Of a stretch of DNA of 64,000 bases, positions 3,640 through 55,119 are shown in pieces. Each line of letters starts with the position of its first letter. Positions within the stretch are counted from its first letter, which is position 1. Under the pieces are notes generated by a model, which had not been told where the DNA came from, made no database searches, and worked only from the letters and a program-made list of their open reading frames with translations. The translations under genes were made by a program, and so were the position numbers. The stretch lies in sequence record MK962752. The stretch is one strand, 5' to 3'. The stretch comes from Shigella phage JK23.

Positions 3640-5058
3640 TTATGGATAGGTATAGATGATACCAGTTTCTAAAGCAGTTTTATGAATGATGTATCCATTA
3701 CGCGATTCTTGAACATCAACTTCTGGATAGTCTTTCATCATCTTCTGAAGAGTGTAACGATGTAGGTAATATTTACTATCTGGGTCGTCAGTTTTCCAAT
3801 CTTTACCTTCTTCGGTCATTTTTTGGATTTCATCCATAACCCACCAACCGCACCAGATATAAGCTGAAGTACGATGTGGAAGAGGATGAACATAAGGTAG
3901 TTCACCTTCTGGTTCTGGAGCAACTTTATCAGTTACCTGAACTTGACCTTCTGCTGTAATAGTTTTGCTATCGTAATCAGTTGCAGTAACGACAGCAGTA
4001 ACTTCAATAGTTTGACTTCCAACAGATGAGGTATCGACAGTATATACGTTAGTTGACCCTTCTACAGGAGAAGAATCTTTCTTCCATGAGTAAGTAATTT
4101 GTGCTTCTTCTGGAGCACCCGTAACATTAGCCGTAAATGTAGCCGAAGCATCTTGCTGAACATTAATAGAAGGAGGAGTCAATGTAACCTGTGGATTCAT
4201 TGTCTTCTTATTAACTGTCAATGATACTTCATTAGAAGTAACTTCCTTTTCATTGTAATTTTCAGCAGTTACTTGAGCTACGCATTTAATTCTTTTTACT
4301 CCACTTGTAGTTGGAGTATAGTTAAATGTAGAGTTAGTTTCTCCACCAATTTGTGAATCATCTACATACCACTGATACGTAGCAGACGCTCCATCAGGTT
4401 GAGAAGCTAAGGCAGCAGTAAATTGAACTGGGGTTCCGATTACTCCCGCTGGAGGACTATCAGGAGTTACTGCCAAAGTAGTTGTCTGCGTCTTTTTATT
4501 AACAGTCAGTGACACTTCATTGGAAGTAACTTCCTTTGTATCATAATCTGTCGCGGTTACTTGAGCTACGCACTTAATTGTTTTAACTCCGCTTGCGTCA
4601 GGAGTGTAATTGAATGTAGTGCTAGTTGCTTCGCCCACAGGAGAACCGTCAACGTACCATTGATACGTAGCGTTTGCACCTGATGGCTGTGAAGCTAAGG
4701 CAGCGGTAAATTCAATTGGAGTTCCAATCACTCCAGCATCAGGGCTACCAGGAGTTACTGCCAAAGTAGTTGTTTGTGTCTTATTTTGAACTGTGATAGT
4801 TGTACTAATTTCAGCTGTTTCAGGTTCAGATTCTGCAACTTGATTGGTTGCAACTACTTTAATAGTCTTTTGACCGGCAGGTCCTTTTAGTACATAACTA
4901 AAAGTTGCTGACGTTTCTTCCTGTGGAGCGTCGTCTACAGTCCAAGCATATGTAATAGTTCCGCCTCCAGTTTCACCACTGGGTGTAGCAGTAAACTGCT
5001 TAGTTTCATCAATAACCCCTGTCGGTGTTTTAGGAGTTATATCAACTGTAAAAGTCAT
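3640..5058 (-). CDS. hoc: highly immunogenic outer capsid protein Hoc with four Ig-like domains
   Basis: 472 aa; N-terminus MTFTVDITPKTPTGVIDETKQF and C-terminal capsid-binding domain as in T4 Hoc; two adjacent ~96-aa Ig-like units nearly identical. Confidence 0.9.
   Translation of the reverse strand: MTFTVDITPKTPTGVIDETKQFTATPSGETGGGTITYAWTVDDAPQEETSATFSYVLKGPAGQKTIKVVATNQVAESEPETAEISTTITVQNKTQTTTLAVTPGSPDAGVIGTPIEFTAALASQPSGANATYQWYVDGSPVGEATSTTFNYTPDASGVKTIKCVAQVTATDYDTKEVTSNEVSLTVNKKTQTTTLAVTPDSPPAGVIGTPVQFTAALASQPDGASATYQWYVDDSQIGGETNSTFNYTPTTSGVKRIKCVAQVTAENYNEKEVTSNEVSLTVNKKTMNPQVTLTPPSINVQQDASATFTANVTGAPEEAQITYSWKKDSSPVEGSTNVYTVDTSSVGSQTIEVTAVVTATDYDSKTITAEGQVQVTDKVAPEPEGELPYVHPLPHRTSAYIWCGWWVMDEIQKMTEEGKDWKTDDPDSKYYLHRYTLQKMMKDYPEVDVQESRNGYIIHKTALETGIIYTYP
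4208..4783 (-). repeat. in-frame tandem repeat (2 x 288 bp, diverged copies) inside hoc
   Basis: Unit at 4208-4495 aligns with 4496-4783; encodes duplicated Ig-like domain. Confidence 0.8.
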
Positions 5059-50441: not shown

Positions 50442-52361
50442 ATGGCTACTTTAAAACAAATACAATTTAAAAGAAGCAAAACTGCAGGTCAACGTCCTGC
50501 TGCTTCAGTATTAGCCGAAGGTGAATTGGCTATAAACTTAAAAGATAAAACAATTTTCACAAAAGATGACTCAGGTAGTGTTATAGAATTAGGTTTAAAA
50601 TATGGAGGAACAATTGATGGTTCTTTAACTGTTAATGGAAATATAATTGGAAATTTAACAGGTAACGCTGCAACTGCAACGAAATTAAAAACAGCACGAA
50701 AAATTAATGGTATATCCTTTGATGGGTCAAAGGATATCACGCTAACTCCATCTGACATAAATGTCAATAGCACAACATTTATAAAAAATAATGGCGAATT
50801 ACCTGTTGATGCTAATTTAGATGAGTATGGGCCTGTTGAAGAATATCTTGGTGTTTGGTCGAAAGCAACTTCAACCAACGCTCAACCAGCAAATAAATTT
50901 CCAGAAGAAAATGCTGTAGGTGTGCTAGAAGTATTTGTGGCCGGTCAATTTGCTGGTACTCAGAGATATACAACTAGATACGGAAATGTTTATATTCGTT
51001 CCTTGACTGCTACATGGAACGGAGTAAATGGTCCGTGGAGTGTGTGGCGAAATATTCAATCCGGTACTCGTCCACTGTCAACAACAATTGATCTTAATGA
51101 TCTAGGAGGCGCTGAACACTTTGGTTTGTGGCGAAATAGTTCAAATTCCATTGCTACCTTTGACAGAAATTTCCCAGAAGAGGGGTCGTCAGCTCAAGGT
51201 CTTTTGGAAGTATATGAAGGTGGAAACTATTCTCGTACACAAAGATATACAACCAGATTTGGTGTTGTATATACTCGTTGTCTTGCTGCCGCGTGGGATG
51301 CTTCCGCGCCTAAATGGGGACCGTGGCAACAAGTCGGTAATGTCACACCAGCGACTTTCTATGACGGAGATCTGAATGATTTTAAAACCCCTGGGTTATA
51401 TAATATTTTAGGCACTGATGCCGTTATTAACTGTCCTACAGGTGAAGGTTTGCCGACTGTTATTGTTGGTTTGCTGGAAGTTAAACAACGTGCTTCTGGC
51501 GGTGCTATTTTCCAAAAATTTACTACTGCCGGAACGGGTGCAACTACTCGCGATCGTATTTTTGAGCGTGCATATACTGGTGGTGTGTGGGGTGCATGGA
51601 ACGAAGTATATACATCTTACTCTCTGCCAATTACTTTAGGTATGGGTGGTATTAAAACTCAATTAGCGGAGCTAGATTGGCAAACATTTGATTTTGTTCC
51701 TGGTAGTATGTTTAGCGTTCCTTTGAACAAAATAAAGAACATGCCAGCTAATATGAATTGGGGCACGATTGACGGAAACTTAATTATGTTTTCTGTTGGT
51801 CCTAGCGAGCACACCAGCACAGGACGTACTGTTCAGGTTTGGCGTGGAACTGTATCCCAGACAAACTATCGTTATTTTGTCGTTCGTGTGTTCGGTAATT
51901 CTGGAAATAGAACTTGCACAGTTCGCCGTGTTGTTCTTGAAGACGGATCACATACTTGGACTGCTCAACAAAACTTTAGGGGATTGCTGAATATCACTGC
52001 TGCTGTTAATCTTGGTGCTAATCAGAAAATTTCACTTGCTCCAGGAGCATATATTCAAGCCCCTGCTAGCGGTTCTGGTTCTAATACTTACGCAAATCAG
52101 AATACTACCATTGCGCCATTATATCAGGCTATTGACGATTCAAATAAAAACCAGTTTGCGCCAATTGTTAAACAGAAAAATACTGTAAGTAATATCACCT
52201 TTGCCACTGGTATGGCTATAGGTACATCCGAATATAAGATCATTGCTCAGGGTGATTTATCCGCTGATGGAACAGCAGATGGGTTAAAACAGTGGACTTT
52301 CATGCCGTCAGGTTATTTTAAATCTCCAGGGCGTGTATATGTCATTATATCAGGCTATTGA
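50442..52361 (+). CDS. 37: long tail fiber distal subunit gp37, 5' part; frame broken by a 226-bp tandem duplication
   Basis: N-terminus [13 protein letters not shown] as in T-even gp37; frame ends at TGA 52359-52361 inside the second repeat copy. Confidence 0.75.
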
Positions 52362-52569
52362 CGATTCAAATAAAAACCAGTTTGCGCCAATTGTTAAACA
52401 GAAAAATACTGTAAGTAATATCACCTTTGCCACTGGTATGGCTATAGGTACATCCGAATATAAGATCATTGCTCAGGGTGATTTATCCGCTGATGGAACA
52501 GCAGATGGGTTAAAACAGTGGACTTTCATGCCGTCAGGTTATTTTAAATCTCCAGGGCGTGTATATGTC
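52118..52569 (+). repeat. perfect direct tandem duplication, 2 x 226 bp, inside gene 37
   Basis: 52118-52343 is identical to 52344-52569; 226 is not divisible by 3. Confidence 0.9.
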
Positions 52570-53613
52570 GGTGATGCGTTCCTTAATACAGATGGTAATA
52601 TTGCCGGTTCAATCTGGAAGAAATATAACAATGCGACAAATTTAGATGCTGCCTTGAATACTCGCGTAGGTAAAGGCGGTGATACGATGACAGGTCGGTT
52701 AACAATCAATGCACCTAATGATTCTATTGTATTATCAACGACTGCTAGTAATTCTTTGCATATTCGTGGTGACATAGACGGGACTGGTAACTGGTATATT
52801 GGTAAGGGTGGTGCTGATAATTCGCTAGCATTTTATAGCTATGCTTCTCAGGCGGCAGTACATATCACAAACAATGGTGAGATTGCGTTAAACCCGCAAA
52901 ATACCGCAATGGTTAACGTTAACCGTGACCGTGTACACATTAACGGTTCTGGATGGATTGCTAGACAACCGGGTGATTGGGGCAACCAATGGCGAGTAGA
53001 AGCTCCATTATTCGTTGATCATGGTTATGTTTCACAGGATTGTTATTATCCTATTCTTAAAGCAAGAAGCGTTATAACCAATCAAGGATATAGCACCGCT
53101 GTTGACTTTGGTATGCGTCGTATTCCATCACAGTGGGGGCAAGCAATCATTCGTGTCGGATCCACGGAGGCTTCTCCTGATGCTGGACACCCACAAGCTA
53201 TATTTGAATTCCATCATGATGGATTCTTTTATACACCAGGAAATGGTAGCTTTAGCGATGTGTATATTCGTTCTGACTCCCGTCTCAAGATTAATAAAGA
53301 AGAATTAGAATATGGAGCGGTCGAAAAAGTTTGCCGACTGAAAGTTTATATTTACGATAAAGTTAAGTCTATTAAAGACCGTAGTGTTATTAAACGTGAA
53401 GTTGGTATTATTGCTCAGGACCTTGAAAAGGAATTACCGGAAGCTGTATCTAAAGTTGAAGTTGATGGATCTGATGTTCTGACAATTTCTAACTCTGCTG
53501 TGAATGCTCTTTTAATTAAGGCTATTCAGGAAATGAGTGAAGAAATTAAAGAATTGAAAACGCCTCTCTTTACTAAAATTGCTCGCAAAATTAGTAAATA
53601 TTTTAAATTCTAA
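52333..53613 (+). CDS. 37: long tail fiber distal subunit gp37, 3' part (in frame only downstream of the duplication)
   Basis: Track ORF (GTG start) resumes gp37 frame; C-terminal domain carries an SDxRxK motif like intramolecular-chaperone autoproteolysis sites. Confidence 0.65.
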
Positions 53614-53649: not shown

Positions 53650-54432
53650 ATGGCAGTAGTTGGTGTTCCTGGTTGGATTGGAAGTTCAGCCGCAAATGAA
53701 ACAGGACAGCGCTGGATGAGTCAAGCGGCTGGTCAATTAAGATTGGGTGTTCCTTGCTGGATGAGTCAATTTGCAGGTCGCTCACGAGAAATTATTCACA
53801 CGCTTGGAGCAGACCATAACTTCAATGGTCAATGGTTCCGAGATAGATGTTTTGAGGCAGGTAGTGCACCTATAGTGTTTAATATTACAGGTGATTTAGT
53901 ATCATATTCTAAAGATGTTCCTTTATTCTTCATGTACGGAGATACACCAAATGAATATGTTCAGTTAAATATACATGGCGTAACGATGTATGGACGTGGC
54001 GGTAATGGTGGTAGCAATAGTCCTGGCTCAGCTGGAGGTCATTGTATTCAAAACGATATTGGTGGGAGACTAAGAATTAATAATGGTGGAGCTATTGCTG
54101 GCGGCGGTGGCGGCGGTGGCGGCGGATATTATTCTCCTTTTTCACAAATGAGATTAACCTTTGGCGGTGGTGGTGGGCGTCCGTTTGGTGCACCTGGCGG
54201 ATCTATTGATATGCAATCAGGCGCAACTGCTGGTACTATTTCTGCACCTGGCTCAGGATCCGTGAATGGTATCTATAATGGTGGAAACGGTGGTGAAGTA
54301 GGTTCCGCGGGAGGTAGATGCAATATTCGCGGTCAAGGATCTGAATATAATGGCGGCGCTGCTGGTTATGCTGTCATAGGGTCTGCTCCAACGTGGCAAA
54401 ATGTTGGAGCAATATATGGTCCAAGAGTATAA
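53650..54432 (+). CDS. 38: gp38 receptor-binding adhesin (T2-type) with glycine-rich motifs
   Basis: 260 aa; poly-Gly/Gly-rich blocks separated by variable segments; follows gene 37. Confidence 0.85.
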
Positions 54433-54462: not shown

Positions 54463-55119
54463 ATGGCAGCACCTAGAATATCATTTTCGCCCTCTGATAT
54501 TCTATTTGGTGTTCTAGATCGCTTGTTCAAAGATAACGCTACCGGGAAGGTTCTTGCTTCCCGGGTAGCTGTCGTAATTCTTTTATTTATGATGGCGATT
54601 GTTTGGTATAGGGGAGATAGTTTCTTTGAGTACTATAAGCAATCAAAGTATGAAACATACAGTGAAATTATTGAAAAGGAAAGAAATGCACGCTTTGAAT
54701 CTGTCGCCCTGGAACAACTCCAGATAGTTCATATATCATCTGAGGCAGACTTTAGTGCGGTGTATTCTTTCCGCCCTAAAAACTTAAACTATTTTGTTGA
54801 TATTATAGCATATGAAGGAAGATTACCTTCAACAATAACTGAAAAATCACTTGGAGGATATCCTGTTGATAAAACTATGGATGAATATACAGTTCATTTA
54901 AATGGACGTCATTATTATTCCGACTCAAAATTTGCTTTTTTACCAACTAAAAAGCCTACTCCCGAAATAAACTACATGTACAGTTGTCCATATTTTAATT
55001 TGGATAATATCTATGCTGGAACAATAACCATGTACTGGTATAGAAATGATCATATAAGTAATGACCGCCTTGAATCAATATGTGCTCAGGCGGCCAGAAT
55101 ATTAGGAAGGGCTAAATAA
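54463..55119 (+). CDS. t: holin T
   Basis: 218 aa; single N-terminal transmembrane segment and large periplasmic domain. Confidence 0.9.
   Translation: MAAPRISFSPSDILFGVLDRLFKDNATGKVLASRVAVVILLFMMAIVWYRGDSFFEYYKQSKYETYSEIIEKERNARFESVALEQLQIVHISSEADFSAVYSFRPKNLNYFVDIIAYEGRLPSTITEKSLGGYPVDKTMDEYTVHLNGRHYYSDSKFAFLPTKKPTPEINYMYSCPYFNLDNIYAGTITMYWYRNDHISNDRLESICAQAARILGRAK

Follow-up and report, generated by a model that had tools for sequence, protein, structure and literature searches.

Gene 38 of Shigella phage JK23 (sequence record MK962752) contains a run of nine glycine codons that is built from a short DNA repeat. The question raised by this locus is whether the run is a passive structural element of the encoded protein or a site at which the protein, and possibly the host range of the phage, is readily altered. 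The locus was analysed within a stretch of 64,000 nucleotides of the phage genome, referred to below as the window. The reading preferred here, to which a probability of roughly 70% is assigned, is that the tract encodes a conserved polyglycine-II (PGII) helix of an adhesin and acts as a generator of in-frame variants of this adhesin rather than as an on/off switch.

The gene and the attachment domain of its product are located as follows:

53650-54432, plus strand: gene 38 ORF (ATG start, TAA stop, 260 aa), T6/T2-type long-tail-fibre tip adhesin (receptor-recognising protein gp38)
53650-53775, plus strand: N-terminal attachment domain (residues 1-42; Gp38_N match), with Trp9, Trp22, and Trp37 as prongs for the gp37 trimer tip

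A preliminary description made from the sequence had assigned to these positions a 260-aa protein with glycine-rich motifs, and this was confirmed: glycine accounts for 62 of the 260 residues (49 of the C-terminal 146), and the motifs were located at residues 151-160, 172-185, and 211-222. The G+C content is 46% in gene 38, as against 36% across the 64-kb window. The full-length Pfam profile GP38 (PF05268, "phage tail fibre adhesin Gp38") was matched at 3e-72 (243.4 bits, cut-off 25), and Gp38_N (PF21721) was matched by residues 1-42 at 6e-20 (71.4 bits, cut-off 25). Among solved adhesins, the receptor-binding domain of PP01 gp38 (9V85) matched the protein at 5.5e-79, and S16 gp38 from the gp37-gp38 tip complex (6F45, chain D) matched it at 1.2e-49. 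An AlphaFold model prepared with 73 homologues (mean pLDDT 87) displays a beta-helix followed by a PGII sandwich. When this model was submitted to Foldseek, 9V85_C (E=3.7e-27, TM 0.88) and 6F45_D (E=1.9e-22, TM 0.76) were retrieved, and no other fold was returned at E<1. Homology to the solved structures thus shows the architecture of the protein to comprise an N-terminal three-helix bundle with Trp prongs, a beta-helix, the PGII sandwich, and distal loops directed to the receptor.

The gene name and the position following gene 37 are all that would speak for the alternative that the ORF encodes a T4-type gp38 assembly chaperone, a protein located outside the virion. Similarity to T4 gp38 is absent (BLASTP E=1.6), the strong sequence and fold matches are to adhesin families and adhesin structures instead, and the T4 record itself calls the two "gp38" proteins unrelated. 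The chaperone identity was therefore rejected and has a negligible probability. The assignment to the T2/T6-type adhesins, which the preliminary description had already favoured over the chaperone, is practically certain. Within this family the protein is of the T6/Tsx type, and its identity to T6 gp38 amounts to 93% over the full length.

Trp9, Trp22, and Trp37 align with tryptophans of S16 gp38, and such prongs constitute the docking of gp38 onto gp37 (PMC6851490). An imperfect 24-nt direct repeat (53711-53734 and 53756-53779, encoding RWMSQAAGQ and CWMSQFAGR) was also observed within the N-terminal domain; it reflects the pseudo-threefold layout of the prongs that dock on the gp37 trimer.

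Gene 38 is not new: the family to which it belongs has been well characterised, and public databases already contain the sequence of the gene. At the DNA level it matches g247 of Yersinia phage fPS-65 at 100% identity and its counterparts in the BASEL phages KarlGJung and Paracelsus at 99.9%, and exactly the same protein has been recorded in many phages. Tsx is the E. coli receptor recognised by T6-like gp38 proteins (PMC3157838); the same receptor is given for KarlGJung and Paracelsus in PMC13353012, which refers to Maffei et al. for this point. On Y. pseudotuberculosis, fPS-65, the carrier of the identical gp38, depends on the heptose region in the inner core of the LPS (PMC7917993). [quoted passage not shown] Y. 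pseudotuberculosis is devoid of Tsx, and small changes in the hypervariable segments HVS2 and HVS3 let T6-like phages plate on it (PMC3157838). In chimeras of T6 and PST, Yersinia plating was influenced by residues 167/168 of HVS2 (PMC3157838).

The neighbourhood of gene 38 contains the following features:

50442-53613, plus strand: gene 37 (distal half-fibre), interrupted and present as two overlapping ORFs (50442-52361 and 52333-53613)
52117-52568, plus strand: perfect 226-nt tandem duplication within gene 37 (copies 52117-52342 and 52343-52568, junction 52342/52343)
54463-55119, plus strand: holin gene t (Pfam Phage_holin_T, 1e-116), conserved downstream neighbour

The gene order 37-38-t, together with a gp37 that carries the S74 chaperone domain, is the context expected of a gp38 adhesin. 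The domains Peptidase_S74 (C-terminal intramolecular chaperone) and gp37_trimer are encoded by the second gene 37 ORF. According to the preliminary description, a frameshift in gene 37 removes the site at which gp38 is attached. The gp38 docking/cleavage motif DVYIR↓S of gp37 (PMC7917993), located at 53257-53271, and the chaperone domain do lie downstream of the break. The lesion itself, however, is not a small frameshift but the 226-nt tandem duplication, which shows 1 nt of microhomology at its junction and places the second copy out of frame, leading to a stop at 52359-52361. Removal of one copy yields a gene 37 ORF of 2946 nt (981 aa), as in all relatives, and neither 50,697 phage records nor IMG/VR contained the duplication junction. 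Since a lesion present in all genomes would leave the phage without functional long tail fibres, the duplication probably reflects an error of assembly or editing, or else a variant found in a minority of genomes.

The closest record to the window is vB_EcoM_G4498 (99.5%), and the window is collinear with PYps32T across positions 1-64000, small gaps aside; a seeming difference of 8.8 kb in length from the relatives arose from the joining of separate matches. Far from gene 38, on the minus strand at 3640-5058, a 472-aa ORF was observed that contains repeated modules of about 96 residues; a 288-nt unit occurs in it twice with 78% identity (4202-4782). By eye, we take these modules to resemble the repeated Ig-like domains of Hoc, an outer capsid protein.

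Three observations concern the partners of gp38 in other genomes. At the loci L025-L054, the same 260-aa gp38 proteins follow gp37 proteins of 981, 982, 994, 1030, or 1031 aa, and adhesin and fibre shaft have therefore been reassorted among phages. In a 303-aa protein from an E. coli assembly (P0034), gp38 from residue 1 to about 156 is fused, inside the tract, to a gp37-like C-terminal chaperone segment (…NDVYIRSDRRLKIN…); this protein is either a product of recombination at the tract or an assembly chimera. At the loci L071-L076 (relatives P0044, P0052, P0107, and P0113), the last of which comes from an NCBI genome assembly, distant gp38 homologues are found behind a 73-aa gene that was not called as an S74-domain gp37, and these homologues may be part of a prophage or of another type of element.

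The repeat and the segments that follow it are arranged as follows:

54099-54126, plus strand: poly-Gly tract, with nine Gly codons at 54100-54126 (residues 151-159) and (TGGCGGCGG)x3 at 54099-54125
54127-54162, plus strand: HVS2 (residues 160-171), hypervariable segment forming a distal receptor-contact loop immediately 3' of the tract
54163-54177, plus strand: second Gly tract, GGC GGT GGT GGT GGG (residues 172-176, then RP)

The nine consecutive codons read ggc ggc ggt ggc ggc ggt ggc ggc gga, exactly as quoted in the preliminary description. Positions 54099-54125 were reported by Tandem Repeats Finder as 3.0 copies of TGGCGGCGG with a 100% match, and this array is the sole perfect short-period array detected in the 64-kb window. 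GGC is used in six of the nine tract codons, whereas in the remaining long ORFs of the window it makes up 13% of the codons for Gly. The second Gly tract begins 36 nt downstream of the first.

In the alignment of 73 sequences, invariant Gly columns alternate with variable blocks, corresponding to the glycine-rich motifs and the hypervariable segments. Because G152-G156 are invariant in the 73 homologues, the tract is no chance feature. The length of the Gly run was scored in 97 cluster representatives and found to be nine in 50 of them, eight in 37, seven in six, six in three, and four in one. The tract aligns with 151-GGGGGGGG-158 of S16 gp38. In the latter protein, the glycine-rich motifs form ten PGII helices in a three-layer sandwich, the hypervariable segments are distal loops, and residues 151-158 constitute the central helix 3 with a saturated hydrogen-bond network (PMC6851490). 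In the model of the window protein, the tract has a pLDDT of 97 and is assigned neither to helix nor to strand, and residues 159-172, with HVS2, are modelled as a beta-hairpin. In PP01 gp38, the counterpart of HVS2 (loop-B) is required for adsorption (PMC12892980). The nine-Gly run is thus the long central PGII helix 3, leads from the beta-helix to the HVS2 loop, and forms part of the conserved structural core. An architecture of glycine-rich motifs separated by variable segments had been proposed from the sequence. The alternation holds, but the tract itself is not one of the variable segments; it is a conserved central helix.

Natural length variants of this helix were found nevertheless. 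Exactly one extra GGC GGC GGT unit, resulting in 12 Gly, is carried by PYps14T and by AV121, the SNP backgrounds of which differ. PYps32T, which represents a third synonymous background, also has 9 nt more in the tract, with one Gly codon changed to Val (GTC). A metagenomic sequence of a different clade (L071) equals its relative L072 minus 9 nt in the tract (nine to six Gly); the -9 and -15 nt variants were obtained from short-read assemblies. Tandem duplications of 54 nt in PYps47T and of 51 nt in an IMG/VR contig (L009) are joined within the two Gly tracts, with HVS2 doubled in both cases. In D5505, one GGT is missing from the second tract (GGGGG-RP to GGGG-RP). PYps55T, which belongs to the same phage collection and carries another gp38 subtype, has 9 nt duplicated in tandem within its first glycine-rich motif (RGGQGG to RGGQGGQGG) as well as 3 nt inserted at the end of its run of eight Gly. 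The proposal that the tract is prone to in-frame expansion and contraction is supported by the gains and losses of 9 nt and by the two duplications, and the tract is likely to be a hot spot for in-frame length change.

A trace of such turnover may also be seen where the length of the tract is unchanged. In 20 distinct DNAs encoding 260-aa proteins, 10 synonymous versions of the 27-nt tract were counted. The third-position diversity of these DNAs reached 0.32 in the first and 0.35 in the second tract, compared with 0.17 at the other Gly codons and 0.14 at the other four-fold sites, a pattern that fits frequent turnover of the tract under a constraint on its length. A DNA hairpin or another secondary structure was considered as the driver of slippage and rejected: folding of the G-rich strand gave -8.4 kcal/mol, which does not differ significantly from shuffled sequences (z=-1.75), and the C-rich strand remained unfolded.

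The constraint on length is strong. A 147-nt segment was constant in length in 59 of the 60 closest records, the exception being D5505, in which the second tract is affected and not the nine-Gly tract. About five to six length variants were found in roughly 141 full matches, and more than 95% of the close relatives keep the tract length. As the variants are so rare, many of them are probably deleterious. The same data may be explained by assuming that the tract is purely structural, that its length variants, without a role in host range, arose by accident, with a neutral or mildly harmful effect, or by errors of sequencing or assembly, and that the differences in host range discussed below result from assay noise or titre. 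The conservation of tract length and the burial of the corresponding central PGII helix (PMC6851490) agree with this assumption, as does the finding that deletion of a whole glycine-rich motif from T6 gp38 gave no viable phage (PMC3157838). GC-rich repeats such as the tract are, moreover, error-prone in sequencing, and the HP3 record indicates that errors arise in the tract. The RefSeq gp38 of this phage (P0129) is frameshifted inside the tract and ends after 187 aa, whereas gp38 of HP3.1 is intact (260 aa). The step from HP3 to HP3.1 was considered as an experimental tract change and discarded, since two SNPs, located elsewhere, were reported as the sole differences between the two phages (PMC8092219). 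The frameshift is most plausibly explained by a sequencing error in the RefSeq entry.

The purely structural explanation was weighed against pairs of nearly identical wild phages. Four complete genomes (PYps32T, PYps47T, PYps14T, and PYps15T) were assembled from public records and compared base by base:

PYps32T (165,733 bp) versus PYps47T (165,778 bp): three differences, namely 9 nt in the tract, a 54-nt duplication, and one synonymous SNP
PYps14T (166,935 bp) versus PYps15T (166,925 bp): three differences, none of them a SNP

In the first pair, the additional 9 nt (TGGCGTCGG) are located in the tract of PYps32T and include the G-to-T exchange that converts GGC into GTC (Val), and the 54-nt duplication is carried by PYps47T. 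The synonymous SNP (AGC/AGT, Ser) lies in a capsid vertex gene, and the difference between the two proteomes is confined to gp38. In the second pair, gp38 differs by one 9-nt unit TGGCGGCGG in the tract and by a 3-nt indel removing N210 (HVS3). Beyond gp38, the two genomes differ solely in tk, the thymidine kinase gene, where a TT indel affects a T-run at 132030 in PYps14T and at 132018 in PYps15T (loci L069 and L070); tk is annotated as split in both genomes.

Four of the six genome differences in the two pairs together are located in the specificity domain of gp38, and three of these fall within the tract or at it. Such clustering implies that the site is hypermutable, under strong selection, or both. 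With two of the three differences in each sibling pair of roughly 166 kb being gp38 indels, such a concentration would be very unlikely if neither factor were operating, and exact +9 nt insertions in three phages from two laboratories and in three SNP backgrounds are likewise difficult to attribute to accident or error.

Host ranges are available from the spot tests of one paper (PMC8762354, Table 1), and the pairs are natural siblings rather than allelic-exchange constructs. PYps32T lysed 87 of 128 Y. pseudotuberculosis and 8 of 9 Y. pestis strains, compared with 52 of 128 and 4 of 9 for PYps47T. For PYps14T and PYps15T, in which the changes in the tract and at N210 are confounded, the corresponding numbers were 78 versus 85 of 128 and 9 versus 8 of 9. 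Reliance on spot tests is a further point in favour of the purely structural explanation, but 87 versus 52 of 128 is a large difference in host range; taken as a whole, this explanation is improbable. The link between tract and host range is a plausible correlation with published spot tests in near-isogenic wild phages, and the chances that a change in the length of the gp38 tract alters host range are about even. The repeat had been proposed in the preliminary description as a possible host-range switch. The near-isogenic pairs lend correlative support to the part that concerns host range; the word "switch" is not appropriate, the tract being a generator of variants rather than an on/off device.

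The variants could arise in two ways. Replication slippage (slipped-strand mispairing) on the array of three 9-nt repeats would add or remove 9-nt units, each equivalent to three Gly. HVS2 would be doubled or lost if the first tract underwent unequal exchange with the GGC/GGT tract that lies 36 nt further downstream. A PGII helix has three residues per turn. A step of 9 nt would therefore correspond to one turn and keep the helical register, which is perhaps why unit-sized changes survive, and the extra residues might extend or loosen the distal HVS2 loop. The site would thus be a mutational hot spot from which adhesin variants arise in frame, their distal loop being either lengthened or doubled. 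Selection would remove most of these variants, and some would persist in association with an altered host range.

A different role has been assigned to the same DNA in the literature, in which the glycine-rich motifs are proposed as recombination hot spots (the Tetart/Trojet model). The GGC/GGT-rich sequence would, on this account, serve mainly as a short homology for recombination between co-infecting phages, by which the hypervariable segments are shuffled, and slippage would be a side effect. The GGC/GGT codon choice in both tracts persists in gp38 genes that are just 45-65% identical, the same gp38 occurs with gp37 partners ranging from 981 to 1031 aa, and P0034 is a chimera joined at the tract, all of which would be expected from recombination. 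The differences within the sibling pairs, however, are intragenic length changes with zero imported sequence, and a homology of 15-27 nt is short for efficient homologous exchange; recombination at the site is, besides, compatible with slippage also occurring. As the main role of the tract, recombination homology is a possibility of appreciable weight, although the odds are against it. The published view of a recombination site is compatible with the data and may supply the main reason for the conserved GGC/GGT coding.

The reading of the tract as a generator of in-frame variants can also be taken further. The (TGGCGGCGG)n tract and the second Gly tract together might form a selected hypermutable module that continually supplies in-frame variants, one PGII turn longer or shorter or with HVS2 doubled or lost, at a frequency far above that of point mutation and contributes to standing host-range diversity in T-even phages; the match between the 9-nt unit and the three-residue PGII turn would then be the property that allows slipped products to fold. 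This extension is speculative, and we consider it rather unlikely.

Host range in most T-even phages is determined mainly by gp38, and these phages find wide use in phage therapy and biocontrol. What is added here is that, in two pairs of wild siblings, length changes originating at the repeats are nearly the sole differences in about 166 kb and coincide with differences in host range. If this association holds, the repeat would be a predictable place of drift or adaptation in therapeutic T-even phages, and it would also be a target either for recoding, by which a phage is stabilised, or for deliberate variation, by which it is diversified. Differences in tract length encountered in genome comparisons should then be neither dismissed nor trusted unchecked; checking is necessary because sequencing errors also arise there.

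Among the known systems, T6 gp38, with the RB3/RB5/PST group, is closely similar to the protein described here. The nine-Gly tract, a nearly identical set of hypervariable segments, and the 37-38-t context are shared, and the few substitutions include S165 of the window protein in place of Pro in HVS2; the window protein is one residue shorter near position 111. The best solved relative is PP01 gp38 (9V85), in which loop-B is the counterpart of HVS2; it differs in its tract of eight Gly, its loops, and its receptor, OmpC of O157. S16 gp38 (6F45) shares the three-part architecture, the Trp prongs, the ten PGII helices, and the alignment of helix 3, with 43% identity over the Foldseek structural alignment, but its tract has eight Gly, its distal loops differ, and its receptor is OmpC. 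With the T4 gp38 chaperone, which is unrelated in sequence and located outside the virion, the gene name and the map position alone are in common.

Two further systems resemble the tract in behaviour rather than in sequence. Duplications of the His-box domain of T4 gp37, which are likewise in-frame tandem duplications in a fibre-tip adhesin, expand host range (Tetart et al. 1996, as cited in PMC3157838). They affect another protein with another fold and were selected in the laboratory, whereas the unit in gp38 is 9 nt long, encodes a polyglycine helix, and varies in wild isolates. Bacterial contingency loci have in common with the tract a tandem repeat within a coding region, a gene of surface recognition, and polymorphism of repeat number among near-identical genomes; in gp38, the coding repeat is perfect, and differences in repeat number were found between PYps14T and PYps15T, between PYps32T and PYps47T, in AV121, and between L071 and L072. 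The gp38 tract differs from such loci in that its changes remain in frame, so that the structure of the protein is altered rather than its expression turned on or off.
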